A stretch of DNA of 64,000 nucleotides, taken from the NCBI RefSeq assembly GCF_056712565.1, contig NZ_CM160072.1; one strand, given 5' to 3'. How positions within the stretch are numbered: the first letter of the stretch is position 1; the number at the start of each line of letters is the position of its first letter. The notes beneath the pieces are model-generated. The model was not told the origin of the DNA and ran no database searches. It was given only the letters and a program-made list of their open reading frames with translations. Position numbers and translations under genes: made by a program. Below, in pieces: positions 5,934 through 46,585 of this stretch.

Positions 5934-7333
5934 AGTTCTGGCGACCCGGTATTACCGGCAAACTGTTTCTGGCGATTTTCGCCACCTGCATTGTCTTATT
6001 GATCACGATGCACTGGGCGGTACGTATCAGTTTTGAGCGCGGCTTTATCGATTACATCAAGCATGGTAATGAACAACGGCTGCAAATGCTCGGCGATGCG
6101 CTTGGTGAGCAGTACGCCCAGCACGGGAACTGGCGCTTCCTGCGTAATAACGATCGCTTTGTATTTCAGATCCTACGTTCACTGGAGCATGATAACAACG
6201 AAGATAAGCCCGGCCCCGGTATGCCACCACACGGCTGGCGCACGCAATTTTGGGTGGTTGATCAAAATAATAAAGTGCTGGTTGGCCCGCGAGCACCGGT
6301 TCCACCCGACGGCACACGGCGGCCCATTATGGTCAATGGTGCGGAAGTTGGCGCGGTGATCGCCTCCCCTGTTGAACGACTGACCCGTAATACTGATATC
6401 AATTTTGACAGACAACAGCGGCAAACCAGTTGGCTGATTGTGGCTTTATCTACCTTATTAGCGGCGCTGGCGACATTCCCACTGGCGCGCGGTTTGCTGG
6501 CTCCGGTAAAACGACTGGTGGATGGCACGCACAAACTGGCAGCGGGTGATTTCACTACTCGCGTAGCCCCCACCAGCGAAGATGAGTTGGGCAGACTGGC
6601 AGAGGATTTCAATCAACTCGCCAGCACACTGGAGAAAAACCAGCAGATGCGCCGCGATTTTATGGCCGATATTTCTCATGAACTGCGCACGCCTTTAGCA
6701 GTACTGCGCGGCGAACTGGAAGCCATTCAGGATGGTGTGCGTAAATTCACGCCGGAGACGCTGGCTTCTTTACAGGCAGAAGTCGGAACACTGACAAAAC
6801 TGGTTGACGATCTCCATCAATTGTCTATGTCTGATGAAGGCGCTCTCGCCTATCAAAAAGCACCGGTAGATTTGATCCCACTGCTGGAAGTGGCGGGAGG
6901 CGCATTTCGCGAACGATTCGCCAGCCGTGGCCTGAAATTGCAATTTTCCCTGCCAGACAGTATTACCGTATTTGGCGATCGCGATCGTTTAATGCAGTTG
7001 TTCAATAACTTACTGGAAAACAGCCTGCGCTACACTGACAGCGGCGGCAGCCTGAAAATCTCTGCCGAACAGCACGACAAAACGGTGCGCCTGACCTTTG
7101 CCGACAGTGCGCCGGGTGTCAGTGACGATCAGCTACAAAAATTGTTTGAACGTTTTTATCGCACCGAAGGTTCCCGCAACCGCGCCAGCGGTGGTTCCGG
7201 GCTGGGGCTGGCGATTTGCCTGAACATTGTTGAAGCACATAACGGCCGCATTATTGCCGCCCATTCGCCTTTTGGCGGGCTTAGCATTACAGTAGAGTTA
7301 CCGCTGGAACGGGATTTACAGAGAGAAGTATGA
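5930..7333 (+). CDS. baeS: Envelope-stress sensor histidine kinase BaeS
   Basis: 467 aa; HAMP plus H-box (ISHELRTPL) and ATPase motifs; 4-bp overlap with mdtD. Confidence 0.92.
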
Positions 7334-8052
7334 CCGAGTTACCAATCGACGAAAACACACCGCGTATTTTGATCGTGGAAGATGAACCGAAGCTGGGGCA
7401 GTTGCTCATTGATTATCTGCGTGCTGCGAGCTATGCGCCAACGTTGATTAGCCACGGCGATCAGGTACTGCCATATGTGCGCCAGACACCACCGGATCTG
7501 ATCCTGTTGGATCTGATGCTCCCTGGCACCGATGGCCTGACGCTGTGCCGGGAAATTCGTCGTTTTTCTGACATTCCGATCGTGATGGTGACGGCAAAAA
7601 TCGAAGAGATCGACCGCCTGCTGGGGTTGGAGATTGGCGCAGATGACTATATCTGCAAGCCGTACAGCCCACGGGAAGTGGTAGCGCGCGTCAAAACCAT
7701 TTTGCGCCGTTGCAAACCGCAGCGTGAGTTGCAGCAACAGGATGCTGAAAGCCCGTTGATTATCGACGAAGGTCGTTTTCAGGCTTCCTGGCGCGGTAAA
7801 ATGCTTGACCTGACGCCTGCAGAATTTCGTCTGCTGAAAACGCTCTCTCATGAACCAGGAAAAGTGTTCTCCCGCGAGCAGTTGCTGAACCATCTTTATG
7901 ACGACTACCGCGTGGTAACCGACCGTACCATCGACAGCCACATTAAAAACCTGCGCCGCAAGCTGGAATCTCTCGACGCCGAACAGTCATTTATCCGCGC
8001 CGTTTACGGCGTCGGTTACCGCTGGGAAGCCGACGCCTGCCGCATCGTTTAA
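7330..8052 (+). CDS. baeR: OmpR-family response regulator BaeR
   Basis: 240 aa; receiver domain plus winged-helix; overlaps baeS stop. Confidence 0.93.
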
Positions 8053-20925: not shown

Positions 20926-22130
20926 CGGTCAGGCTCCTTATAATTGCTGTTAACCGAGGTGACCAGATTTGCCAGGTATTTATCGGTAATACGCTGGCGC
21001 AGGGTCAGGTTTTCAAGAGGAGGCACCGGTGTATAGTCGTAGTCGATATACAGTTTTCCGGCCTTGAGGGTTTCCGCATCGTTGGATTCTTCGCTGAACC
21101 AGCAGGTCGCATCCACGATATAGCCGTTTGTTTTCAGCTCACGGAATTTGGCATTGATGCCGTCAACGATGTCGCGAATCAGCGTTGCGGTGATGGGCTT
21201 GTCCACCGCCCACATGTGCGCCTCAGCCATCGTGTCAGCCAGTACCTGCGCGGTGCGGGTGTAGTTTTCAAAGAGGAACAGCGGGTCATCAGAGCAGGTA
21301 CGGTTACCCCAGAATCGGAAACCGTCGCGGCGAATCAGCGTAGTGACGCCTGACTCGTTAAGCAGGTCAGCATCGGTGCCGGACTCCTGCAAATCCCAGA
21401 ATACAGATGCGCTGATGCCGGTAACACCGTTTACCCCGACGTTGGACAGCGTTTTATGCCAGCCCTGCTCCTGGTCGATTTTAGCGCGCAGACCCAGCGC
21501 ACGGGCGGTGGCATACGCGGTAGCGGTGGTACTGGTGACCGTATCCCATGCGAGGAAATCCGGCCAGATGACCATCAGCTCACGCTGGCTGAAATTCTGG
21601 CGGTAGGCTTTCACCTCGGAAATGGTCTTACAGCCCCATGCGCTGATATATCCGAAAGCGCGCAGCTTCTGACAGACGGATGCCAGTGCAACAGCCACCT
21701 CTTTGGTATCCAGTCCCGGCACACCGAGAATACGCGGTTTAACACCGGTTACCGACTCCGCCGCCAGCAGGGCTTTTAGTCCGGTGTACTGACCGTTTTC
21801 GTCGGTGGTGCCGATGATATTGGAAACGGTCTGCGCGAGTTTCGTTTCCTCGTCATCACCGGTGCAGTCTTCCACGCGCACGACAACGGTGACCGGTTTT
21901 GACTGGTCAGCGATGGCCTGCAACGATGCCGCCAGCGTGCCTTTTTTACCGGCCTTTGCAATTGCGCTTTGCACATTGGTAATCAGCACCGGTTTATTGA
22001 GGGGGAAGGTTTCCGCATCCGCATCGCTGGCCGTGCAGACCATGCCGACAATGGCAGTGGATACGGTGGAAATGACGCGGGTGCCGTCGTTAATCTCCAG
22101 CACCTGCACGCCATGATGATAGTCACTCAT
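20898..22130 (-). CDS. FI: Contractile tail sheath protein FI
   Basis: 410 aa starting MSDYHHGVQVLEINDGTRV. Confidence 0.88.
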   Translation of the reverse strand: MSDYHHGVQVLEINDGTRVISTVSTAIVGMVCTASDADAETFPLNKPVLITNVQSAIAKAGKKGTLAASLQAIADQSKPVTVVVRVEDCTGDDEETKLAQTVSNIIGTTDENGQYTGLKALLAAESVTGVKPRILGVPGLDTKEVAVALASVCQKLRAFGYISAWGCKTISEVKAYRQNFSQRELMVIWPDFLAWDTVTSTTATAYATARALGLRAKIDQEQGWHKTLSNVGVNGVTGISASVFWDLQESGTDADLLNESGVTTLIRRDGFRFWGNRTCSDDPLFLFENYTRTAQVLADTMAEAHMWAVDKPITATLIRDIVDGINAKFRELKTNGYIVDATCWFSEESNDAETLKAGKLYIDYDYTPVPPLENLTLRQRITDKYLANLVTSVNSNYKEPDRWQCRANSS

Positions 22131-22222
22131 CCGTTTAACTCCGTGGTTAATGGGTACAACTATTTTCTGTTGTGCAGAGCATAAGACGCTATTTGACCTG
22201 GCTGGTCAGTGGATGAAACAAC

Positions 22223-22253
22223 AGATAAAGAAAAGGCGGGCAATTCGCCCGCC
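22223..22253 (-). terminator. Rho-independent terminator between cargo region and the FI operon
   Basis: 7-bp GC stem ggcgggc/gcccgcc with a T-run on the minus strand (complement of agataaagaaaa). Confidence 0.5.
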
Positions 22254-22460
22254 TGTCCTGATTTGTACTCACTCATTTTCCGCCTGACAATTTACATAGC
22301 CCAAATGCTATCAAACCTGACAGTCTGCTTTGAGCGAAAAGTGGACATTAGAGTTACAAAAGCAAGTTTAAATCATCCAAAATATTACAATGTCCTTATC
22401 TATCTGATATCGTTATGATAAAAAGCTCCTGAATATAATCGATAGTAGGTGGTTATTTCC

Positions 22461-22838
22461 ATGAAATCAATTTTAGAGGTCTTTACTCAAGGAAATACTA
22501 AAGAAAAACTGGCTGTTATCGCCGATCTCACAACCATTGCGGGAATATCGATTGCAACTATTATTGCTGGTTTGTTAACCCTAGTTGCAAAAACAGATAA
22601 ACTAGATGTTGGAAATCTGTTTGGAGTTGTCATAATATCTCTGCTCGGATTGGCTGGTGTTTGCTGTTTTGTGGCCTTATTTATTTGGGTTATAACCCAA
22701 ATGTCTAAACCATGGGGAACACCTCGGGGGGTTCAGCCCTTAGTTAAGTGTGCTATTTCCCTTATCTTTATCTGTATGTTTTTGCTGGCTGTCTTTACAT
22801 TTTATGAGTTTATTTCTTCGATGAGCATACGCTATTGA
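22461..22838 (+). CDS. Small hydrophobic membrane protein (3 predicted TM helices), prophage cargo
   Basis: ORF 22449..22838; likely start ATG 22461 (MKSILEVF) with AGGTGG RBS; AT-rich. Confidence 0.6.
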   Translation: MKSILEVFTQGNTKEKLAVIADLTTIAGISIATIIAGLLTLVAKTDKLDVGNLFGVVIISLLGLAGVCCFVALFIWVITQMSKPWGTPRGVQPLVKCAISLIFICMFLLAVFTFYEFISSMSIRY

Positions 22839-22860
22839 ATATAAAATCAGCCCCCATAAC

Positions 22861-23445
22861 TTAAAAGAGACCTTCTATATCGACTTCAATGCCCAAATAA
22901 CGGACTGTGCTTTCCAGTTTCTTATGGCCCAACAGAAGTTGGATCACCCGGAGACTCTTGGTTTTCTTGTAGATTAAGTAAGGTTTTGTTCTTCTCATGG
23001 AATGTGTGCTGTACAGCGAATCTTCGAGACCAAGCTTTTCTACCCACCCATGAAAAATTCGGTTGTATTGCCGGGTTGATATATGGTGGTTAGTTCCGAC
23101 CCGAGAGCGGAACAGGAAGCCTTTACTATGCCAGTTGCCGAGCTTTATCAATGCAGTAACCGCTTCCCTTGTCCCTTTGGTTATCTCAAATTGGACAGGG
23201 CTGCCGGTTTTCTGTTGCAACACCGTTGCTCTGCTTGAGACAGAACTGCCATATGCAGCATCTGATACTTTGAGTTTGACCAAATCACAGCCCCGTAGCT
23301 TAGTGTCCAAAGCCATGTTGAACAGAGCTAGATCGCGTGTTTTACCTTCCAACTCAAGTCTAATCCGGATCCCCCAGATATGAAATATCTGAAGTGGCCT
23401 TTTTTGACCGATGGTACGGTCTTTATTCCACGGTGACGTTTTCAT
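22861..23445 (-). CDS. Small tyrosine recombinase (phage-integrase family, FimB/FimE-sized)
   Basis: C-terminal catalytic signature HSMRRT...LLGHKKLESTVRYL (R, H-x-x-R, Y); likely start ATG 23445 with AGGAGA RBS giving 194 aa. Confidence 0.7.
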   Translation of the reverse strand: MKTSPWNKDRTIGQKRPLQIFHIWGIRIRLELEGKTRDLALFNMALDTKLRGCDLVKLKVSDAAYGSSVSSRATVLQQKTGSPVQFEITKGTREAVTALIKLGNWHSKGFLFRSRVGTNHHISTRQYNRIFHGWVEKLGLEDSLYSTHSMRRTKPYLIYKKTKSLRVIQLLLGHKKLESTVRYLGIEVDIEGLF

Positions 23446-24275
23446 ATTCAAATCTCCTGCAATGTGGGAGATTTGAGTATGGTTGTCTCTCAAGAGCGAA
23501 AATAAGTCAACTATCACTAGTTGTTGCGCATGTACGTATTCTGTCAATTAATTATTGACAATCATCAATTCTGGAATGATCAAAATCATCATATCGAATT
23601 ATAGTCTGGTTGACTGTATCTATTGTTGGTGTCATTTCTGTTATAATATCCTGATAACCTAAAGAGTTAAATACATTTACTAAGGCCTCACACCGAAGGG
23701 CCGTAGCAATTACAAAATTATAAATTGCCAGCCGTTTATTTTCTTGTTTAACTGCAAGAATGAATTCGATAGCAGTATTTTCATCACTTTGGATTGCATT
23801 ATATAGAGATACTATATTTACCATATCATCAGAGAATGTATGTATTGAATCACAAAGGGGAACGTAATGGGCATGATAGTGTGTTTCCCAGCCAATTAAT
23901 TCAAAAAGTCTTCTGGTTCCTGGATATTCAGGTGTATTTGGCCACAATCTATTAAATAGATCAGTTAGTTCTTTTCCCATGCGAATCCTTTCATTTGCTG
24001 CTGGATTAGTCATTCCTTTGGATTTTAAACACTCCAGCCACCGTTTTCCATTACTATGAACTAATTTCTTACTAGCCTTGAGTAATGCTTGTGCATTTTC
24101 GCCATCATCTATTGCTATATAAAATTGATTGGCAGCCTGTTCTATTATAACCCTAGCTAATACTTCCGATGCTGAAAAGGCTCCTATATTCAAAGAAGAG
24201 ATAGCCTGATTACTAAGTTCATTCAGTACATTAAAGTACTGTAAGACCATCAATTTTTGTTCCACACCCTTTAGG

Positions 24276-24280
24276 TTGTC
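24276..24280. repeat. IS2 target-site duplication, TTGTC (copy 1)
   Basis: 5 bp immediately flanking the IS2 terminus, identical to 25612..25616. Confidence 0.85.
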
Positions 24281-24291
24281 TGGATTTGCCC

Positions 24292-25197
24292 CTATATTTC
24301 CAGACACCTGTTATCACTTAACCCATTACTGGCTTGCTGCCGTAGATATTCCCGTGGCGAGCGATAACCCAGTGCACTATGCGGATGCCATTCGTTATAA
24401 TGCTCGAACGCCTCTGCAAGGTTCTTTGCTGCCGTTAACCCGTCTGGTTTGGGCATGACACTGATGTAGTCACGCTTTATCGTTTTCACGAAGCTCTCTG
24501 CTATGCCGTTACTCTCCGGACTCCGCACCGCCGTGCTCTTCGGTTCAAGCCCCAACATCCGGGCAAACTGCCGTGTTTCATTAGCCCGGTAGCATGAACC
24601 ATTATCCGTCAGCCACTCTACTGGAGACGCCGGAAGCTCGTTGCCGAAGCGGCGTTCCACCGCTCCCAGCATGACGTCCTGTACTGTTTCACTGTTGAAG
24701 CCGCCCGTAGTGACCGCCCAGTGCAGTGCCTCACGGTCACAGCAGTCCAGCGCGAACGTGACTCGCAGTTTTTCTCCGTTATCACAGCGGAACTCGAACC
24801 CGTCAGAGCACCATCGCTGATTACTTTCTTTCACAGCCACTCTGCCTGTATGTGCCCGTTTCGATGGCGGTACAGCAGGTTTTCGCTCAAGCAACAGCGC
24901 ATTCTGGCGCATGATCCGGTAAACACGTTTGGCATTGATCGCAGGCATACCATCAAGTTCTGCCTGTCTGCGAAGCAGCGCCCATACCCGACGATAACCA
25001 TACGTGGGCAGCTCTCCGATAACATGGTGTATACGGAGAAGCACATCCGTATCATCAGTGTGACGACTGCGGCGGCCATCCATCCAGTCATCGGTTCGTC
25101 TGAGAATGACGTGCAACTGCGCACGCGACACCCGGAGACAACGGCTGACTAAGCTTACTCCCCATCCCCGGGCAATAAGGGCGCGTGCGCTATCCAC
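24292..25197 (-). CDS. insD: IS2 transposase InsD (orfB, DDE domain)
   Basis: 301-aa ORF inside IS2. Confidence 0.9.
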
Positions 25198-25520
25198 TTT
25201 TTTGCCCGTCCATATTCAACGGCTTCTTTGAGGAGTTCATTTTCCATCGTTTTCTTGCCGAGCAGGCGCTGGAGTTCTTTAATCTGCTTCATGGCGGCAG
25301 CAAGTTCAGAGGCAGGAACAACCTGTTCTCCGGCGGCGACAGCAGTAAGACTTCCTTCCTGGTATTGCTTACGCCAGAGAAATAACTGGCTGGCTGCTAC
25401 ACCATGTTGCCGGGCAACGAGGGAGACCGTCATCCCTGGTTCAAAGCTCTGCTGAACAATTGCGATCTTTTCCTGTGTGGTACGCCGTCTGCGTTTCTCC
25501 GGTCCTAAGACATCAATCAT
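25155..25520 (-). CDS. insC: IS2 InsC (orfA, HTH)
   Basis: 121-aa product [41 protein letters not shown]...; overlaps insD in -1 frame. Confidence 0.9.
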
Positions 25521-25611
25521 CTGCTCTCCAATGACTAGTCTAAAAACTAGTATTAAGACTATCACTTAAATAAGTGATATTGGTTGTCTGGAGATTCAGG
25601 GGGCCAGTCTA

Positions 25612-25616
25612 TTGTC
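25612..25616. repeat. IS2 target-site duplication, TTGTC (copy 2)
   Basis: 5 bp immediately flanking the other IS2 terminus. Confidence 0.85.
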
Positions 25617-25768
25617 TATTTTATTTTTATGCTCCTCAAATTTTGCATGGATATATTTATTTATCGCGGCTATTTTTTTTACATCTTCGTCAAGATCAAA
25701 CGGGCAACGTCCAAACAATTCTTTTTTCATATATTTCTCCTGTTGTACAAGCTTCCATAAGTTGGCAG

Positions 25769-25794
25769 ATTATACACTGAAGATTACCTATAAA
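25769..25794 (-). promoter_or_regulatory. Candidate sigma70 promoter for the IS2-disrupted cargo gene
   Basis: Minus-strand TATAAT (25769..25774) with TTTATA upstream (25789..25794); spacing about 14 bp, so tentative. Confidence 0.35.
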
Positions 25795-26151
25795 TAGCTG
25801 TGCGGGATAGCAGATCAGTGCAAGAAGTACAACCAAGTGAACTGTGCGTATTCAGATACCTGGCCTAACGTTCGCGATAGCCGTCCCCTGCACGAAGCCA
25901 TATATTAGATGTATTAGCTCAGACCTTATCTGACAGGTTGAGTAGGTAGAATCTAATCAAAGCTGACAGTCTGGTTTGGACTGTGAGTTCAACCGATGGA
26001 TGCAACACACAGCGATCTACGGACATTACTAGCATAGCTGTGTATTAATCATCGGGAAGCAGGTCAGTCCGCTCCTAGCACAGAGCAGACTGTCAGATTA
26101 GGCTTTACTCTGTGCTATAGATACGTTAGCTCACTCCAGAGATCATACAAC

Positions 26152-26679
26152 TTATTGCGGCATTTCCGGCCATTCAGGATTTGCAGGATCCACACGGCTG
26201 ACCAGAACACTGTAGCGTTCCCATGCTTCCAGTCGGCTACGCTCCTCATCTGTTGCCATATTCAGTCTGACAGAGCGTTCCAGTGGCTGAATGATAGTTT
26301 CAGCTTCGGAAAGCAAAGCTGACTTCTGTAATTCCGCCAGTTGCAGCTGTTCGTCTGCCGTATAAATCCGCTTAATCACGGCACCATCCTTAAACATCCA
26401 TTTACCTGAGTCATCAGCACGTCGGTTGGCGGTAATATCAGGAACCTCGACAACGCTAAAACCTTCAGGGTTGAGCGTTGAAGCATCTCTGGTGATGCCG
26501 ACAATTATATTATTCTCATCGTAAACAATCTTTATCGTGTCTTCCTGAAAATTACTTACTTCCTCATACCAGTTTTTTCCCTCTTCGGACCATAACCAGA
26601 TAACATCAAAATTTTTTGTCAGTTGATATTGGGCAACAGTTTTTGGATTACCCGCAGTAATATTTTTTAAATGCTGCAT
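26152..26679 (-). CDS. G: Tail fiber assembly protein G
   Basis: 175 aa immediately downstream of tail fiber gene H. Confidence 0.85.
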
Positions 26680-38278: not shown

Positions 38279-40051
38279 ATGACCATCACCACAGACACCA
38301 CTCTTTTACACGACCCGCGTCGTCAGGCGGCGCTGCTGTACTGGCAGGGATTTTCCGTGCCGCAGATTGCCGCCATGTTGCAGATGAAACGCCCGACAGT
38401 GCAGAGCTGGAAACAGCGCGACGGCTGGGACAACGTTGCCCCCATCAGCCGTGTCGAAATGAGCCTGGAAGCGCGGCTGACCCAGCTCATCATCAAACCG
38501 CAGAAAACCGGCGGTGACTTCAAGGAAATTGACCTGCTGGGACGCCAGATTGAACGACTGGCACGGGTAAATCGTTACAGCCAGACCGGCAACGAGGCAG
38601 ACCTTAATCCGAACGTCGCTAACCGCAACAAAGGCGGGCGGCGCAAACCGAAAAAAAATTTTTTCAGTGACGAGGCCATCGAAAAGCTGGAGCAGATTTT
38701 CTTTGAGCAGTCTTTCGACTATCAGTTGCACTGGTATCGCGCCGGGCTTGAGCACCGCATCCGCGATATCCTGAAATCCCGCCAGATTGGCGCGACGTTT
38801 TATTTTTCCCGCGAGGCGCTGCTGCGCGCCCTGAAAACCGGCCATAACCAGATTTTTCTGTCGGCCAGTAAAACGCAGGCGTATGTGTTCCGCGAATACA
38901 TCATCGCCTTTGCCCGGCTGGTTGACGTTGACCTGACCGGTGACCCGATTGTCCTGGGCAATAACGGCGCAAAACTGATTTTTCTCGGCACCAACTCCAA
39001 CACCGCACAGAGCCATAACGGCGACCTGTACGTCGACGAGATTTTCTGGATCCCGAATTTTCAGGTACTGCGTAAGGTGGCATCAGGTATGGCCTCACAG
39101 AGTCACCTGCGCTCGACCTATTTCTCCACCCCGTCCACGCTGGCGCACGACGCCTACCCGTTCTGGTCAGGTGAACTGTTCAACCGGGGACGCGCCAGCG
39201 CCGCCGAACGCGTGGAAATCGACGTCAGTCATAACGCCCTTGCCGGTGGGCTTCTCTGTGCGGACGGCCAGTGGCGGCAGATTGTCACCATTGAGGACGC
39301 CCTGAAAGGTGGCTGCACGCTGTTCGACATTGAACAGCTCAAACGCGAAAACAGCGCCGACGATTTTAAAAACCTGTTCATGTGTGAATTTGTTGACGAC
39401 AAGGCGTCGGTGTTCCCGTTCGAGGAGCTGCAACGCTGCATGGTCGACACGCTGGAAGAATGGGAAGACTATGCGCCGTTTGCCGCCAATCCGTTCGGCT
39501 CCCGCCCGGTCTGGATTGGTTACGACCCGTCACACCGTGGCGACAGCGCCGGATGCGTGGTACTGGCACCGCCGGTGGTGGCCGGTGGCAAATTCAGAAT
39601 ACTTGAGCGTCACCAGTGGAAAGGCATGGACTTTGCCACTCAGGCGGAATCCATCCGCAAACTCACCGAAAAATACAACGTCGAATACATCGGTATTGAT
39701 GCCACCGGCCTCGGTGTCGGCGTGTTCCAGCTCGTGCGCTCGTTCTATCCCGCCGCGCGCGATATCCGCTACACGCCGGAAATGAAAACCGCAATGGTGC
39801 TCAAGGCAAAAGACGTCATCCGCCGTGGCTGTCTGGAATATGACGTCAGCGCCACCGACATCACCAGCTCGTTTATGGCTATCCGCAAGACCATGACCAG
39901 CAGCGGACGCAGCGCCACTTATGAGGCCAGCCGCAGCGAGGAAGCCAGCCACGCCGACCTCGCCTGGGCGACCATGCACGCCCTGTTAAATGAGCCACTC
40001 ACCGCCGGTATCAGCACCCCGCTGACATCCACCATTCTGGAGTTTTACTGA
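38279..40051 (+). CDS. P: Terminase large (ATPase) subunit P
   Basis: 590-aa product starting MTITTDTTLLHDPRRQ; divergent from O. Confidence 0.88.
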   Translation: MTITTDTTLLHDPRRQAALLYWQGFSVPQIAAMLQMKRPTVQSWKQRDGWDNVAPISRVEMSLEARLTQLIIKPQKTGGDFKEIDLLGRQIERLARVNRYSQTGNEADLNPNVANRNKGGRRKPKKNFFSDEAIEKLEQIFFEQSFDYQLHWYRAGLEHRIRDILKSRQIGATFYFSREALLRALKTGHNQIFLSASKTQAYVFREYIIAFARLVDVDLTGDPIVLGNNGAKLIFLGTNSNTAQSHNGDLYVDEIFWIPNFQVLRKVASGMASQSHLRSTYFSTPSTLAHDAYPFWSGELFNRGRASAAERVEIDVSHNALAGGLLCADGQWRQIVTIEDALKGGCTLFDIEQLKRENSADDFKNLFMCEFVDDKASVFPFEELQRCMVDTLEEWEDYAPFAANPFGSRPVWIGYDPSHRGDSAGCVVLAPPVVAGGKFRILERHQWKGMDFATQAESIRKLTEKYNVEYIGIDATGLGVGVFQLVRSFYPAARDIRYTPEMKTAMVLKAKDVIRRGCLEYDVSATDITSSFMAIRKTMTSSGRSATYEASRSEEASHADLAWATMHALLNEPLTAGISTPLTSTILEFY

Positions 40052-41085
40052 TGAGCAAGAAAAAAGGGAAAACACCGCAACCTGCGGCAAAAAAAATGAC
40101 CGCCAGCGCCCCGAAAATGGAGGCATTCACCTTTGGTGAGCCGGTGCCGGTACTCGACCGCCGTGACATTCTGGATTACGTCGAGTGCATCAGTAACGGC
40201 AGATGGTATGAGCCGCCGGTCAGCTTTACCGGTCTGGCGAAAAGCCTGCGTGCTGCCGTGCATCACAGCTCACCGATTTACGTTAAACGCAATATTCTGG
40301 CCTCGACATTTATCCCGCATCCGTGGCTTTCGCAACAGGATTTCAGCCGCTTTGTGCTGGATTTTCTGGTGTTCGGTAATGCGTTTCTGGAAAAGCGTTA
40401 CAGCACCACCGGTAAGATCATCAGACTGGAAACCTCACCGGCAAAATATACCCGCCGTGGCGTGGAGGAGGATGTTTACTGGTGGGTGCCGTCCTTCAAC
40501 GAGCCGACACCTTTCGCGCCCGGTTCCGTGTTTCACCTGCTGGAGCCGGATATTAATCAGGAGCTGTACGGCCTGCCGGAATATCTCAGCGCCCTTAACT
40601 CTGCCTGGCTGAATGAGTCGGCCACGCTGTTCCGCCGCAAGTATTACGAAAACGGCGCGCATGCCGGATACATCATGTACGTCACCGATGCCGTGCAGGA
40701 CCGCAACGATATCGAAATGCTTCGCGAAAACATGGTGAAGTCGAAAGGCCGCAATAACTTTAAAAACCTGTTTCTCTATGCCCCACAGGGGAAAGCCGAC
40801 GGCATTAAAATTATCCCGCTCAGTGAAGTGGCGACGAAGGACGATTTTTTTAATATCAAAAAAGCCAGCGCCGTTGACCTGCTGGATGCGCACCGCATCC
40901 CCTTTCAGTTGATGGGCGGCAAGCCGGAAAACGTCGGGTCTCTGGGTGATATTGAGAAAGTGGCAAAGGTCTTTGTCCGCAATGAACTTATCCCGCTACA
41001 GGACAGGATTCGGGAAATAAACGGCTGGCTCGGTCAGGAGGTCATCCGCTTTAAAAACTACTCACTGGACACTGACAACGGCTGA
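40051..41085 (+). CDS. Q: Portal protein Q
   Basis: 344 aa, downstream of P, adjacent to cos. Confidence 0.88.
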   Translation: MSKKKGKTPQPAAKKMTASAPKMEAFTFGEPVPVLDRRDILDYVECISNGRWYEPPVSFTGLAKSLRAAVHHSSPIYVKRNILASTFIPHPWLSQQDFSRFVLDFLVFGNAFLEKRYSTTGKIIRLETSPAKYTRRGVEEDVYWWVPSFNEPTPFAPGSVFHLLEPDINQELYGLPEYLSALNSAWLNESATLFRRKYYENGAHAGYIMYVTDAVQDRNDIEMLRENMVKSKGRNNFKNLFLYAPQGKADGIKIIPLSEVATKDDFFNIKKASAVDLLDAHRIPFQLMGGKPENVGSLGDIEKVAKVFVRNELIPLQDRIREINGWLGQEVIRFKNYSLDTDNG

Positions 41086-41588: not shown

Positions 41589-43805
41589 ATGGAACTTAGA
41601 TTAAAAAATGTTACCAGTTATAAGAAAGACGCCTTCACAATACTGAATCTTGAAAAAAGAGTAAACATACTATACGGCCAAAATGGTTGTGGCAAATCTA
41701 CCATTTCAAATTATTTCTACGACTCTACACACACAGATTATAACGAGTGTGAATGTACCCTTCTTGACAATTACAAACCTCTTGTTTACAACACTAAATT
41801 TATTGAAGATAACTTCTATAATGCACAGGAACAAAAAGGTGTTTTTACATTAAGTAAAGAAAATGCAGATATTGAAAAACAATTAATTGAAAAAGAAGCA
41901 ATTAAACAGCAACTCACAGAGCAATATAGACAAAAAAAAGGAGTGTTATTGAAATTAGAAGCAGAAATGGAAAAAAAAGAAAATGAATACATCGAATCGA
42001 TCTGGAAAAAAACAGAACCAATCAGAAACTCTGTACTAAAAACCTTAATGAAAGGTAAAGTTGGCTATAAAAGACCTTTTTTTGAGATGATAAAATCATC
42101 CTCACCAATCACCTTTATTAATTTAAATGATATAGCAAAAGAATACTCTATACTATTAGAAAATAGAAACAATGAAACCGCATTAATAACTCCTTTACAT
42201 CCATATACCCCATCAATTGATGATGTAAATACATTAGCAACACCTATAATAGATACAAGCAATAGCTATTTATCAGAAACCATTAATAAACTTCATAATC
42301 TTGACTGGGTAAAAAAAGGTAAAGAACATTATTTAGACGGTTCTACATGTCCGTTTTGTCAGGAAAAAACTATTAGTCACGAATTTTTAAATGCCCTTAA
42401 ATCAATATTTGACGAAAGTTATTCAAAGAAAGTAAAACAGCTCTCAGATATAAAGTCAGTTTATGAGAAAAATACCATATATCATTTTAACGAAATACAA
42501 AACAATATATCATCATGTGCACTAATCAATGAGAAAGATAAAGAGAACATTATTTCCAATATTAAAATATTGCAAAACATTGCAGAAAAAAATTTAATAA
42601 ACATTATTGATAAGATCAACAATCCATCAACATGCGTTACATTAGAAATTGATAAAGAACTAGAAAATCATGTTCAGGAAAGCATAGGCGCTGTTAACAA
42701 GAAAATAAGAGACATAAATGATAAGGTTAAAAAACTCAAAGAGTATGAGAATAAAATCGGAAAACAAGTTTGGGGGGCTCTCCATGCTTTTTGCAGCGAT
42801 GATTTAGAGAATTTATCCAAACACAAAGAAAAATTCTTTGATATCAAAAAGAAAGTTCATGATGAATTAAATAATATTGAGCAACAAGGAAAAGAAAATA
42901 ATCTCACAATAAAAGCATTGCGAGATAAAATATCTAACATTGATTCTACGATAGACTCAATAAACACCCATTTAAAAAATCTAGGGATCTCTGGTTTTTG
43001 TATTGAAAAACATGCAGAAAGAAAAGATATGTACATTATATCTCGACCAGGGCATACAAAAAACCAAAATGTTTATAGATCTCTTAGCGAAGGTGAAAAA
43101 ACACTAATAACGTTTCTTTATTTTTTAGAGTGCTGTAAAGGTAAAACCGATAAAAATGATACCGATAGCAGGGATATTTTTATTGTTATTGACGATCCAA
43201 TATCTAGTCTATCGCAAAACTATGTCTACGACATCGCATCAATTATTCATCACCACATTATAAAAAATGAATTAACAAAGAAGGTATTAATCCTTACTCA
43301 CAATCTTTATTTCTTTCATGAACTTATTAAGCTATCTCCTAAAAGCAGAGAAGACAAACTATTTAAGAAAAACTATTATCTAGGTAGAGTAACGAAAAAT
43401 GATTTTAGTATAATTACTGAAATACAAAAAAACAGCATACAGAATGAATATCAATCTTTGTGGCAAATATTAAAAGATGCAAAAGATGGCAAAGCAAACA
43501 AAATCATAATACCGAATATTATGAGAAACATACTAGAATATTATTTTGCATTTGTTCATAGAACAGATGCTCTACAAGATGAATTAACAAAGTTGGCACG
43601 CGACGATAGCAACAGTGATTTCAAAGCATTCTACAGATACATTAACAGAGGTTCTCACTCTGATGCGGTAAATATTACTGATATGGGCGACATAGACCCA
43701 GATAAATACCTAAAACAATTGAGAACAATATTTTCAGCTACTGGTGACGAAATGCATTATTTAAAAATGATGGACGAACTAGAAGAGGAAAACGTTACCG
43801 CTTAG
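41589..43805 (+). CDS. SMC/ABC-type P-loop ATPase with CxxC and C-terminal R-x3-E...H tail; RloC/PrrC-like anticodon-nuclease candidate (prophage cargo, tin/old position)
   Basis: Walker A GQNGCGKST near N-terminus; CPFC about aa 253; Walker B IFIVIDDP and LILTHN H-loop about aa 525-560; C-terminal RNILE...H; strongly AT-rich. Confidence 0.7.
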   Translation: MELRLKNVTSYKKDAFTILNLEKRVNILYGQNGCGKSTISNYFYDSTHTDYNECECTLLDNYKPLVYNTKFIEDNFYNAQEQKGVFTLSKENADIEKQLIEKEAIKQQLTEQYRQKKGVLLKLEAEMEKKENEYIESIWKKTEPIRNSVLKTLMKGKVGYKRPFFEMIKSSSPITFINLNDIAKEYSILLENRNNETALITPLHPYTPSIDDVNTLATPIIDTSNSYLSETINKLHNLDWVKKGKEHYLDGSTCPFCQEKTISHEFLNALKSIFDESYSKKVKQLSDIKSVYEKNTIYHFNEIQNNISSCALINEKDKENIISNIKILQNIAEKNLINIIDKINNPSTCVTLEIDKELENHVQESIGAVNKKIRDINDKVKKLKEYENKIGKQVWGALHAFCSDDLENLSKHKEKFFDIKKKVHDELNNIEQQGKENNLTIKALRDKISNIDSTIDSINTHLKNLGISGFCIEKHAERKDMYIISRPGHTKNQNVYRSLSEGEKTLITFLYFLECCKGKTDKNDTDSRDIFIVIDDPISSLSQNYVYDIASIIHHHIIKNELTKKVLILTHNLYFFHELIKLSPKSREDKLFKKNYYLGRVTKNDFSIITEIQKNSIQNEYQSLWQILKDAKDGKANKIIIPNIMRNILEYYFAFVHRTDALQDELTKLARDDSNSDFKAFYRYINRGSHSDAVNITDMGDIDPDKYLKQLRTIFSATGDEMHYLKMMDELEEENVTA

Positions 43806-44028: not shown

Positions 44029-46320
44029 TCAAACACAGAAAAAATCAAAGCGCCCTATGAATCCCCCCCAACCATCAGCGACCGGATACGTGAATTTTTT
44101 CCCGTCATAATTTACGGTCGCTCCACGCGCCAGCGCCTCAAGCTCCCATCGCTGCGGCATGATACCGTTCTGAGCAAGGTCAACGCGGATACGGGTGATT
44201 TGCAATCGTTCAGACCTGGTCAGTCTGGCAGATGGTGCAATTTCATGCGGTTTTAACGGGCTTCCGTTTCTTTGCTGACGGTTTGGCGTTCTCAGGTCGT
44301 ATTTTAATGCGCCCCTGAGCGCCCTCACGACCTCCGGTTCATTCCATTCAATAACACCGTCATCAACCAGATTAAGCACTGCTGCGGCGTGCTCAGAAGG
44401 TGTGGGAGCCGGTAACGAAGTATCACCACCGGTGAGCTTTCCACAGTTATTGACAGGACTCCGAGGCGCGGCGATGCCGCTTTTTAAAGTCAAAGGCTCA
44501 ACGACCGGAACTTTCGGCACAATGCGCCAGTCCGTCGTTCTGGTGATATGAATATGACGCGCGCCGAGATGCGGCGCGTAAATGCCGACCACTCTCTCGA
44601 CTTCTTCCTCGTACTCGTTAACGTCATCCGACGGGCTACGGGCAACCCTGACAGTCTGACAATCGCGCGGGACATTTGCCCCACCCTGCGCGCTGATATA
44701 CAACGCAAAATCACCACTGTCTGCGGCAGCGCGAGCAGCCTCGACGCGTTCGTCAAACTCATCAGCAATACTGACGCCGCGAGGCAATTTGCGTAGTTCA
44801 CGGTAAGCCCCCATTGTCGGCAGGCCAACCGTTTTAAATTGCGGAATTCGCCACGTTGACGCCCATGCGGTAACAGCCGCAGCAGTATCTTTCAGCGGCC
44901 TGCCGGTATCATTATCGAGCTGACCATCCAGTGCATAGCCATCGATGTTTTTTGAGATGTATTTTGCGATATACCCCGCAGCACCGCCCCGGTTAAGATG
45001 TTTTGCCTGAAAACGGTTTCGCGCGGCTCCTCTTTCGTCGCCATCCTCTTTGAGCGCATAGCGACGCATGATTTCGATAATCTGGTTACGCTGGCGTGGA
45101 TTACAAAAAAGCATCATATGCCAGTGCGGCGTTCCGTCGTGGTGTGGCTCGACGACACGCAAACCGTAGACCTGTAAATCATTATCCTTGAATGCCGTGC
45201 GCATCAGGCTCCAGATATGGCAGAGATAACGCTGCGCATCCTTTGGATTAAATGCCTCATCGTTCCAGCCGTGATTTAGCTGGACGGTTTTACTTTCGCC
45301 TTTTCCGACCTGACGTGTCGGGTGATACTTTGACGGCGCGGTAAGCGTGATAAACATCCCCACATCACCCTCTGCGGCGGCGTAACGCTCAATACCGGCA
45401 ATGGTGTTCATCAGCTCCATCCGGCGAATTTCAGGATTAGAAATACTGCCCATCACCTTACTGATAAGGTCGATGCGTTCGCCGGTTTCCCTGTTTTCAA
45501 GGTCACACGATTTAAGAAATTCCAGATTTGCCTGGCGGCGTGCACGCACATCACGAATGGCATGTTTACTGGCATAAGGTGAACGGTCTTTATTGACCTC
45601 CCCGACAGCAATCAGTAACGCCTCATGCCAGCGCATACGCTGGCCTTTAAGCTGACTAATCCACCACTCATCGTTAAACAGGCGGGCAATGGCAGAATAT
45701 GCCTGCCTCGTGGTCATCTGTCCTTTACGGTATTTTTTCCAGTAGAGCGGGGAAATATTGAAAGCACGTGCAGCGCCAGCAACATGACCATAGAGGTGAG
45801 CCTGCGCCTCATCCGTAAACAGCGATTCTTTTTCGCCATGCGCATCCACCCAGGCATCGCAGAGTTCCTCATACATCATGAAAAGCTGCGATGAGATACG
45901 GGCGGCAAACTTTTTCAGCTCCTTATCATTCATCCCCGGCAGACGCGCATAATGGTCACGCTCTGCCAGAAACAGCAACGACGCGTCGGTGTTCATTTCA
46001 TGGCGCTGATTCACACGCTCAATGCGCGGCCATAAACGACGCTGAAAAGTGGATGTGAGGAAATAAAACCCGTGCACCGGGCTTTTATTGCGCCGGATGT
46101 AGTCATAGCGTGAAGTAAACAGCGAGCGCAAAAAGTAAGGCAGGCGGTTAATCGTGGATAAAACACCTTGCACCTGACGCATCTCGTCACGTGTAAGGGG
46201 TCTTTCGCGCCCGACGGCCTCGCGTGGCGCGTTCCATGCATAAGCACCGGTAAACGTCTTACCGGTGCCTGCGGTAAATGCTGACGGAGGGACAAAACGC
46301 CCGGAGGCTTTAACGGCCAT
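44029..46320 (-). CDS. A: Replication initiation protein A (rolling-circle nickase)
   Basis: ORF 44029..46362; probable start MAVKASGRF at 46320. Confidence 0.88.
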   Translation of the reverse strand: MAVKASGRFVPPSAFTAGTGKTFTGAYAWNAPREAVGRERPLTRDEMRQVQGVLSTINRLPYFLRSLFTSRYDYIRRNKSPVHGFYFLTSTFQRRLWPRIERVNQRHEMNTDASLLFLAERDHYARLPGMNDKELKKFAARISSQLFMMYEELCDAWVDAHGEKESLFTDEAQAHLYGHVAGAARAFNISPLYWKKYRKGQMTTRQAYSAIARLFNDEWWISQLKGQRMRWHEALLIAVGEVNKDRSPYASKHAIRDVRARRQANLEFLKSCDLENRETGERIDLISKVMGSISNPEIRRMELMNTIAGIERYAAAEGDVGMFITLTAPSKYHPTRQVGKGESKTVQLNHGWNDEAFNPKDAQRYLCHIWSLMRTAFKDNDLQVYGLRVVEPHHDGTPHWHMMLFCNPRQRNQIIEIMRRYALKEDGDERGAARNRFQAKHLNRGGAAGYIAKYISKNIDGYALDGQLDNDTGRPLKDTAAAVTAWASTWRIPQFKTVGLPTMGAYRELRKLPRGVSIADEFDERVEAARAAADSGDFALYISAQGGANVPRDCQTVRVARSPSDDVNEYEEEVERVVGIYAPHLGARHIHITRTTDWRIVPKVPVVEPLTLKSGIAAPRSPVNNCGKLTGGDTSLPAPTPSEHAAAVLNLVDDGVIEWNEPEVVRALRGALKYDLRTPNRQQRNGSPLKPHEIAPSARLTRSERLQITRIRVDLAQNGIMPQRWELEALARGATVNYDGKKFTYPVADGWGGFIGRFDFFCV

Positions 46321-46585
46321 ATGAGCCAAAAGCCTCTGAACAACGCTTGCTGAGTTGCTCAACCTGCGCGTTTAAATCAGCAAAAGACTTTGCGCTTCCG
46401 GTCAGAATATCGTGATGCATCAGGCCGGAAACGAGCTGGCTTAATTTCGGGTAATAACCAACCACCGCCAGCCATTCCTGACCGGCGTTTTTACCGCTTT
46501 CCGCTCTCTTTTTCTCGTGGAGAATAAACTGAAAGCTGTCACTGGTAACGACATAACGTTCGCCAATTTCAATACGAATACTCAT
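46310..46585 (-). CDS. Small early-region phage protein (P2 orf83 position)
   Basis: 91-aa ORF between B and A. Confidence 0.6.
   Translation of the reverse strand: MSIRIEIGERYVVTSDSFQFILHEKKRAESGKNAGQEWLAVVGYYPKLSQLVSGLMHHDILTGSAKSFADLNAQVEQLSKRCSEAFGSYGR

Follow-up and report, generated by a model that had tools for sequence, protein, structure and literature searches.

The Z/fun slot of a P2-like prophage: a probable mosaic of three units framed by 24-bp palindromes, with a small recombinase as a candidate exchange enzyme

The stretch of DNA analysed here, a 64-kb window of contig NZ_CM160072.1, contains a P2-like prophage whose tail genes are read from the minus strand. FI, the tail sheath gene, starts at position 22130 of the window (minus strand; coordinates are window positions unless another locus is named), and the tail fibre assembly gene G stops at 26152. 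The 4021 bases between them carry a gene for a small membrane protein, a gene for a small tyrosine recombinase and a gene of the DUF5677 family split by the insertion sequence IS2. The question raised by this locus is whether the three genes form one system governed by the recombinase, as was suggested in a preliminary description made from the letters alone, or were brought together separately. The explanation preferred here, with a probability of about 0.6, is that the slot holds a mosaic of three independent units in the Z/fun position, framed by two kinds of palindrome, the L-type and the R-type. As Z/fun cargo the locus fits a known type of hotspot; as a recombinase-controlled module it is not supported.

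The FI-G slot and its three segments

The reading of the three genes as a mosaic, and not as one system, follows from the occurrence of each of them elsewhere with other partners or with none. The membrane-gene segment and the recombinase segment correspond to positions 6217-6749 and 6749-7370 of the same slot in E. coli ATCC 11775 (locus L001; the L numbers denote the compared loci), and in a search with the cargo alone all three segments have sharp limits of homology. Another P2 slot contains the membrane-gene segment with 96% identity, adjoining a DUF6650 gene and without a recombinase. The gene was also found without the recombinase and DUF5677 at loci L022, L038 and L040, and in Enterobacter and Serratia it is convergent with the gene of a 556-aa STAND-like NTPase. 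The recombinase segment is present with 88-91% nucleotide identity in about 950 plasmids (Klebsiella, Escherichia, Pantoea and others) and in about 875 of the 5426 complete E. coli genomes to which all E. coli counts below refer, and its neighbours there are unrelated genes. A relative of the DUF5677 gene with 86% identity is located in lambdoid prophages directly after the replication genes, and the recombinase there is a frameshifted pseudogene. Relatives with 41% identity occupy the same lambdoid position without any recombinase.

The features of the slot, with the sites A, B and C discussed below, are as follows.

22234-22254, minus strand: intrinsic terminator hairpin of the P2 backbone, found by a scan of L001 6104-6124 (9-bp stem, 7 GC pairs, T-run)
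22314-22346, plus strand: site A, the left slot boundary, consisting of the backbone flank AACCTGACA and the L-type palindrome GTCTGCTT-TGAGCGAA-AAGTGGAC (22323-22346)
22461-22838, plus strand: gene of the 125-aa membrane protein of PHROG 4155, with hydrophobic stretches at residues 16-45, 47-83 and 90-123
22861-23445, minus strand: gene of the 194-aa tyrosine recombinase (Pfam Phage_integrase PF00589, E 1e-17)
23443-23481, minus strand: 15-9-15 hairpin covering the Shine-Dalgarno sequence and start codon of the recombinase (free energy dG -11.4 kcal/mol, z -4.1)
23485-23508, plus strand: degenerate L-type site upstream of the recombinase, GTCTCTCA-AGAGCGAA-AATAAGTC, from an alignment of eight recombinase loci
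23552-24280, minus strand: 3' part of the DUF5677 gene, from codon 39/40 to the stop (open reading frame and reconstruction)
24281-25611, minus strand: IS2, 1331 bp, between 5-bp TTGTC duplications at 24276-24280 and 25612-25616
25617-25730, minus strand: 5' part of the DUF5677 gene, codons 1-38 (open reading frame and reconstruction)
25731-26070, minus strand: leader of the DUF5677 cassette, about 92% identical to the lambdoid locus L002, with homology ending at the R site
25930-25978, plus strand: site B, a decayed L-type site borne by the cargo, GTCTGGTT-TGGAC, a direct repeat of A over 49 nucleotides with 71% identity
26067-26099, plus strand: site C, the right slot boundary, consisting of the R-type palindrome GTCCGCTC-CTAGCACA-GAGCAGAC (26067-26090) and the backbone flank TGTCAGATT

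Foreign DNA lies between FI and G, as is characteristic of Z/fun cargo, and conserved inverted repeats flank it. The G+C content of the cargo is 0.30-0.45 versus 0.56 in FI, a composition unlike that of the phage backbone. The insert is thus known Z/fun hotspot cargo, and the AT-rich non-P2 module of the preliminary description stands where it had been placed, with boundaries, base composition and flanking repeats in agreement. The preliminary description had also proposed looking for a copy without the insertion sequence. Such a copy was located in E. coli ATCC 11775 and is base-for-base identical after the removal of IS2 and one copy of the duplication (0 mismatches over 2150 + 535 nucleotides). 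RefSeq annotates the flanking genes of this twin as tail sheath and tail fibre assembly protein, in concordance with the boundaries given above, and labels the genes of the slot as hypothetical protein, tyrosine-type recombinase and DUF5677 protein. The intact module is found in about 35 of the 5426 genomes (35-36 carriers) with 99.7-100% identity, and the 30 best carriers share a single arrangement. The allele with IS2 was found in none of the 5426 genomes, and the combination of cargo seen in the window was not found in the phage collection.

The plus-strand gene with three transmembrane segments, described previously, is present with three hydrophobic segments in its product. Homology to other copies of this gene stops at position 22879, in the loop of a bidirectional terminator hairpin. 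As the break falls in the terminator between the two convergent genes, the gene is the leftover of a two-gene cassette of membrane protein and STAND NTPase. This orphan is the only intact and normally framed gene of the slot in this strain. In Enterobacter ludwigii, an IS110-family element is located between the recombinase leader and the membrane-gene cassette (L037 2615-3853; L039 2093-3331) and is missing from the otherwise identical locus L038; the junction palindrome or hairpin may be its target.

Transcription of the late operon, whose last gene is G, runs towards the slot. Since the sole clear terminator is the hairpin at 22234-22254, late transcripts could read through the minus-strand cargo. 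The hairpin is kept in P2-EC31 and stops leftward transcription of the slot just before the FI promoter region.

Palindromes at cassette boundaries

The 11-mer CTGACAGTCTG has exactly three copies in the slot; in the whole window there are 5 matches with at most one mismatch versus 0.63 expected. The copies in sites A and C, and likewise those in B and C, are inverted relative to each other, and A and B form a direct repeat. A further exact copy at 44648-44658 was considered as a slot repeat and attributed to chance, being located inside the GC-rich gpA gene and lacking extended similarity. Two of the three slot copies belong to the conserved P2 backbone and are common to P2-like phages with different cargo. 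The "structured repeat-bearing stretch" of the preliminary description therefore needs a correction: the repeats are real, but they are not specific to this cargo, and two of them constitute the generic frame of the P2 slot annotated in 2004.

The general form of the repeats is a 24-bp palindrome, GTCCGCT-N10-AGCGGAC, with two types of centre (TGAGCGA or TGGCACA). Twelve P2-like slots (the twelfth being L241) were compared. On the FI side the consensus reads AATCTGACA-GTCTGCTT-TGAGCGAA-AAGCGGAC, followed by the cargo; on the G side the cargo is followed by GTCCGCTC-CTRGCACA-GAGCGGAC-TGTCAGATT. In most of the slots the outer palindrome arms do not change and the inner ones differ from cargo to cargo, which places the border between backbone and cargo at the palindrome centres. 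The outer arm of the left site has diverged in L045, and the clearest exception is L047 (phage vB_YpM_22), where the left site has been replaced. Site B lacks 11 central bases; it is missing from P2-EC31 and present in the lambdoid copy together with the DUF5677 leader.

The P2 Z/fun hotspot with flanking inverted repeats was reportedly described by Nilsson, Karlsson and Haggard-Ljungquist in 2004 (Mol Biol Evol 21:1). The GenBank entries AJ512676-AJ512685 of that year show the same position between FI and G, foreign open reading frames of low G+C content and annotated left and right inverted repeats. Site A and site C can be aligned with the repeats marked in P2-EC31, and the left site is annotated as an inverted repeat in AJ512677. 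According to a later review of the 2004 work, the slot repeats permit phages and bacteria to exchange fun in a site-specific manner (PMC8987985). The accessible text on that work does not link a recombinase to the slot repeats. A full-text literature search with variants of the site sequence, which did not cover the 2004 article, returned no paper, and no Rfam family was found at the junction elements. What is new relative to the prior record is the resolution of the repeats into palindromes with two centre types, the breaks inside these palindromes, and the recombinase framed by the same sites.

Two other readings of the repeats were rejected. The palindromes are not terminators: no T-run follows them on either strand, and the real terminator is the one at 22234-22254. 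Nor are sites A and B the attL and attR of an inserted element of three genes, since A is backbone DNA and B, which has decayed, moves with the DUF5677 leader; in addition, the product of a deletion between A and B was found in none of the 5426 genomes.

A scan of all the loci retrieved with the recombinase gave the same palindromes, in intergenic regions of plasmids, chromosomal islands and Proteus islands. Often an R-type site and an L-type site, 18 nucleotides apart, make up a doublet with a long hairpin fold (dG -12.5, z -2.95). The doublet was found in 816 E. coli genomes, close to the 875 with the recombinase, with a median of one per genome, often at a distance of 1.5-2 kb from the recombinase gene; in two of the five sampled E. 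coli cases it is located 1.5 kb away. A known defence gene, PD-T7-1 (E 7e-157), and a candidate one, HEC-08 (E 1e-173), were found beside the recombinase in E. coli, each between an L-type and an R-type site.

The PD-T7-1 cassette gives the clearest picture of a boundary. It is 98.9-99.6% identical at three places:

L020 6885-8234: E. coli YJ1, beside the recombinase in a Qin-like prophage
L241 1774-3123: P2-like Yersinia phage vB_YpM_46, in the Z/fun slot
L242 2779-4128: lambdoid phage mEp460, between the replication genes and hok/rem/Q

The left ends of the three copies are identical from the centre TGAGCGAGGAGTGGAC onward, and the outer arms alone differ (GTCCCTTA, GTCCGCTT and GTCTGCTT). 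At the right ends identity extends up to GTCCGCTCTT, and the divergence begins within the centre. The same cassette is thus present in distinct replicons, and its homology stops within the sites. Over all loci, 15.6% of the endpoints of homology blocks (at least 150 nucleotides, 80% identity) fall within 15 nucleotides of a site centre, versus 0.9% for random positions, a 17-fold excess. The slot repeats belong to a dispersed 24-bp palindrome family, whose members are the places where P2-like phages, lambdoid phages, islands and plasmids swap cassettes. The comparison supplies a defined site of two types, boundaries inside it in three kinds of mobile elements and a named candidate enzyme.

A scan for the site pattern with one genome per species gave at least 120 loci, in Enterobacterales, Idiomarina, Rheinheimera, Hyphomicrobiales, Nitrosospira and other taxa. 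The genes near the sites were inspected for another recurrent enzyme, and this candidate was discarded: the commonest neighbours are LysR regulators, short-chain dehydrogenase/reductase (SDR) oxidoreductases and TetR regulators, which are cargo and not mobility genes. As LysR regulators and short-chain dehydrogenases are the commonest, the cassettes are not restricted to defence genes. In the P2-like slot of E. coli KKo003 (L172 3852-6563), a DUF3800 cassette and a cassette of a 461-aa hypothetical protein are parted by an R-type/L-type doublet, and the Z/fun slot can therefore hold a small cassette array. Many palindrome copies on many contigs were observed in two metagenome-assembled genomes (MAGs), JAJFHV01 of Hyphomicrobiales (L060-L074) and QIFK01 of Nitrosospira (L113-L119), an abundance that resembles REPINs and is unlike the situation in E. 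coli. In the Hyphomicrobiales MAG a second palindrome, GTCCGCTTTACCCCCGAAAGCGGAC, usually lies about 18-20 nucleotides upstream of each 24-bp palindrome.

The small recombinase and the exchange of cassettes

The recombinase of the window comprises the catalytic domain only, without N-terminal domains, and has the size and architecture of FimB/E. Its catalytic residues, as read from the sequence, are all present (R51, K79, H148-x-x-R151, H173 and Y183), and the intact signature and FimB/FimE size reported earlier hold. It belongs to a very large family whose conservation is unusual, with identities of 72-92% across Escherichia, Proteus, Idiomarina and Cycloclasticus. Over residues 1-189 the window protein shares 95% identity with the canonical 200-aa form. 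From position 22879 leftward, its native last 11 residues, the terminator hairpin and the R-type end have been replaced by DNA that is the 3' flank of the membrane gene. The native gene lies between an R-type and an L-type palindrome; the window copy has lost the R-type end, and its L-type site, canonically GTCCCTTA-TGAGCGAA-GAGCGGAC, has decayed. The recombinase of the window is a captured copy of the widespread 200-aa family and, judging by these damaged flanks, probably a passenger that does not regulate its neighbours.

Both arms of the hairpin over the start of the gene are kept in all close intact copies, and one arm is kept in the decayed lambdoid copies. Hairpins of this kind, which block translation of read-through transcripts at the start codon, are a device of IS10 and IS50. 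Read-through transcripts of the recombinase would likewise be left untranslated, and the hairpin would fit a selfish or tightly controlled enzyme and not a regulator of neighbouring genes.

The association of the recombinase with the palindromes is regular. Close copies (about 79% identity and above) have an L-type site, GTCYGCT-nCT-CGCTC, upstream, then the 15-9-15 hairpin, then the gene, and downstream of it a terminator hairpin and CTGTGCCAnnAGCGGAC, half of an R-type site. This pattern was found in four lineages (E. coli, Proteus, Idiomarina and a marine one) and in 16 further loci of viral contigs, 15 of which contain additional sites. In distant lineages (55-66% identity) the dispersed sites have the centres CGGCCA or TGACCCA, and the motif at the stop codon bears the same variant. 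In every lineage seen, the recombinase gene lies between sites of both types. In vB_YpM_22 the left frame of the slot is replaced by the first recombinase codons (62 nucleotides of the 5' end), the leader hairpin and the L-type site, joined directly to the cargo (L047 340-420), and this boundary is the fossil of a recombinase unit.

These observations suggest that the recombinase and the repeats belong together, as was thought previously, in the sense of cassette exchange and not of a switch, for which no rearranged variants were found. It is tentatively proposed that the recombinase family may catalyse the exchange at the palindromes. The broader proposal, that the 200-aa family is the dedicated enzyme of an unrecognised cassette-exchange system with the Z/fun slot, the lambdoid hotspot after the replication genes, and islands and plasmids across Proteobacteria as docking sites, is held at somewhat less than even odds. 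Slot cargo is framed by an L-type site near FI and an R-type site near G, mutually inverted, and exchange would proceed by a double exchange at these heterotypic sites, in the way of the recombinase-mediated cassette exchange used in laboratories or of the mechanism proposed for pdif. Alternatively, folded single strands might be the substrate, as they are in integrons. Few carriers of anti-phage defence genes have been studied as well as the P2-like prophages, and the cargo of their hotspots changes very quickly. If true, the proposal would explain the fast, scarless swapping of defence cargo between unrelated mobile elements, and the sites would delimit cassettes and new defence genes straight from sequence, as attC does for integrons.

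Several points weigh against this interpretation. No direct trace of recombination (circles, both orientations) was found for this recombinase. Since the L-type and R-type sites are inverted relative to each other and differ in their centres, the geometry is beyond what a single crossover can explain. The recombinase gene was found in just 5 of 120 site-anchored loci among the matches listed; the sites far outnumber it and reach taxa where it is not seen in cis. The window copy, regarded here as a passenger, keeps all of its catalytic residues.

According to the strongest rival, the palindromes are real hotspots at which the recombinase does not act. The exchange would then be due to homologous or illegitimate recombination or to another enzyme, such as host XerCD (as for pdif), an HUH transposase (as for REPINs) or a phage function, and the recombinase would be a passenger serving, for example, dimer resolution. 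The vast excess of sites over recombinase genes speaks for it, as do the site-rich MAGs of Hyphomicrobiales and Nitrosospira, where the recombinase was not seen in the fetched DNA, the many P2 slots (most of them) that carry sites without a recombinase gene, and the folding of the doublets into long REPIN-like hairpins. However, the framing by both site types extends to the copies with 79% identity, the site centres co-vary with the recombinase lineage, and the breakpoints lie inside the 24-bp site and are not scattered along the homology. Moreover, 5 recombinase loci among 120 matches listed is at least 10-fold above chance, which by our own estimate would give about 0.2-0.6. To our knowledge, the palindromes are dissimilar to the dif sequence, and this too was counted against the rival. 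Taken with this evidence, a recombinase that plays no part at the sites appears unlikely, if far from negligible.

The proposed exchange can be compared with three known systems. Integrons share the small cassettes, which are poor in promoters, contain one or two genes each and carry accessory functions including defence, as well as the hairpin-capable imperfect palindromes and a dedicated tyrosine recombinase adjoining the array. However, the recombinase described here has 200 aa, lacks the IntI-specific insertion and scores 18 bits versus integron-integrase cut-offs of 435 and 265. The attC consensus contains R and L boxes GTTRRRY, whereas the sites here are 24-bp palindromes GTCCGCT...AGCGGAC. 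The cassettes occur in both orientations between two inverted sites with different centres, and there is no attI/Pc platform. The pdif modules of Acinetobacter plasmids, reportedly described by Blackwell and Hall in 2017, are said to be gene modules between inversely oriented XerC/XerD sites, present in several replicons and moved by an unproven mechanism. The likeness lies in discrete modules, inverted flanking sites and the recurrence of the same modules in different replicons; the difference is the dedicated small recombinase gene in the junctions and the distribution over phages, islands and plasmids of Enterobacterales and other Proteobacteria. REPINs are said to be doublets of REP sequences associated with REP-associated tyrosine transposases, or RAYTs (Bertels and Rainey, 2011). 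Here, too, palindromes are single or form inverted doublets about 18 nucleotides apart that fold as a long hairpin, the enzyme gene is flanked by repeats, and copies are numerous in some genomes. However, the enzyme has the Phage_integrase fold and is not an HUH Y1 transposase, the same site sequence extends across classes of Proteobacteria on mobile elements, and E. coli has about one doublet per genome.

A second rival takes the three genes as a three-component defence system, with a membrane effector, a DNA cleaver of recombinase fold and a HEPN-like sensor or RNase, in which the insertion of IS2 was selected by toxicity. The constant arrangement in about 35 genomes at 99.7-100% identity and the location in a defence hotspot are in its favour, and PHROGs 4155 and 4167 are both phage families. 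However, the 35 near-identical copies may represent one recent lineage, older comparisons give each gene other partners or none, and the segment junctions are illegitimate, cutting the terminator hairpin and the 3' end of the recombinase. None of the three proteins is matched by PADLOC models, with no PADLOC-DB 2.0 family at E up to 1, and sequence searches of PADLOC, NCBIfam and the PDB gave generic recombinase matches only. This rival is improbable.

The suggestion of the preliminary description, a phase-variable system of three genes switched by the recombinase through inversion or excision between the repeats in the FimB/FimE manner, is hardly credible: in its favour are the size of about 200 aa, the catalytic domain with complete residues and no N-terminal domains, the existence of the inverted repeats A/C and B/C and the direct repeat A/B, and a weak NCBIfam match to a tyrosine-type DNA invertase (E 5e-5), but the invertase models PRK09871 and PRK09870 score 22.9 and 14.4 bits, far below the cut-offs of 222 and 221, sites A and C occur in P2 slots without a recombinase, the recombinase's own flanking sites have decayed in the window, and the three genes are found separately elsewhere, with one arrangement in all the 35-36 carriers. 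Synthetic junctions for the A-C inversion, the B-C inversion and the A x B deletion were searched in the 5426 genomes. The A-C inversion and A x B deletion junctions had no matches, and the full-length matches of the B-C junction were only the uninverted allele at 88% identity. No invertible segment or orientation variant being found, there is no sign of phase variation in these assemblies, which are blind to a rare minority orientation within a culture.

The DUF5677 gene, IS2 and the second hotspot

The reconstructed split gene encodes 280 aa and matches Pfam DUF5677 (E 2e-9). IS2 was identified by its proteins (NCBIfam: TnpB 713 bits, cut-off 597; TnpA 276 bits, cut-off 229), and the 1331-bp length and 5-bp target duplication are those expected for IS2. 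The earlier claim that IS2 inactivates this gene is borne out by the split at codons 39-40 with TTGTC duplicated: the DUF5677 gene is knocked out in this strain.

The DUF5677 leader accompanies the gene into lambdoid prophages, where the relative with 86% identity adjoins the defence system Septu (PtuA E 1e-165, PtuB E 1e-83). L002 (NZ_CP148379.1), an 8461-bp circular "plasmid", is made up of lambdoid prophage genes, namely a repressor gene, O/P-like replication genes, DUF5677, Septu, hokD and rem. The record may represent a piece of prophage, excised or wrongly assembled, and not a true plasmid. Palindromes were not found flanking distant DUF5677 homologues (41-54% identity), and the family is therefore older than its cassette form. 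Only ten close relatives are present in a collection of 5.8 billion proteins, and a full HMMER scan gave 51 relatives at E up to 0.001.

The AlphaFold2 model, built with 46 sequences, has ten helices and a mean pLDDT of 95. In a Foldseek search of AFDB50 the DUF5677 relatives came first, followed by LA2681-like HEPN proteins (E 3e-7, TM 0.71) and Apea-like and AbiU2-like HEPN proteins. The protein is confidently predicted to adopt an all-helical HEPN-like fold, and R81, E85, Y173 and H185 are invariant in the 46 sequences. It resembles the HEPN abortive-infection proteins in predicted fold and differs from them in sequence, since no HEPN or Abi sequence model matched it.

It is proposed, with moderate confidence, that the DUF5677 protein is a candidate single-gene abortive-infection or exclusion factor of HEPN type expressed from the prophage; we infer that it could act as an RNase-type defence effector. 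The role in defence or exclusion suggested previously is plausible, the slot being a known defence hotspot and DUF5677 homologues adjoining Septu in lambdoid prophages. Three findings count against it. The canonical Rx4-6H motif is not apparent in the linear sequence, R81 and H185 being 104 residues apart, and the protein has no PADLOC or NCBIfam match. A distant Bacillota DUF5677 protein was picked for testing because the domain is enriched beside serine recombinases, but in E. faecalis its gene was not one of those active in defence (bioRxiv 10.1101/2025.10.07.681051). Should the proposal hold, DUF5677 would become a candidate HEPN-like single-gene defence factor, of which intact alleles exist. 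For the present strain, with a dead DUF5677 gene and a recombinase that is probably a relic, the practical message is modest.

The prophage has another P2 hotspot, between the portal gene Q (40051-41085) and gpA (44029-46362), and no 24-bp palindrome of the Z/fun type was found in it. This hotspot encodes, at 41589-43805 on the plus strand, a 738-aa protein that matches the PADLOC candidate defence family PDC-S06 (E 1e-254) and has weaker similarity to PrrC and LmuB.

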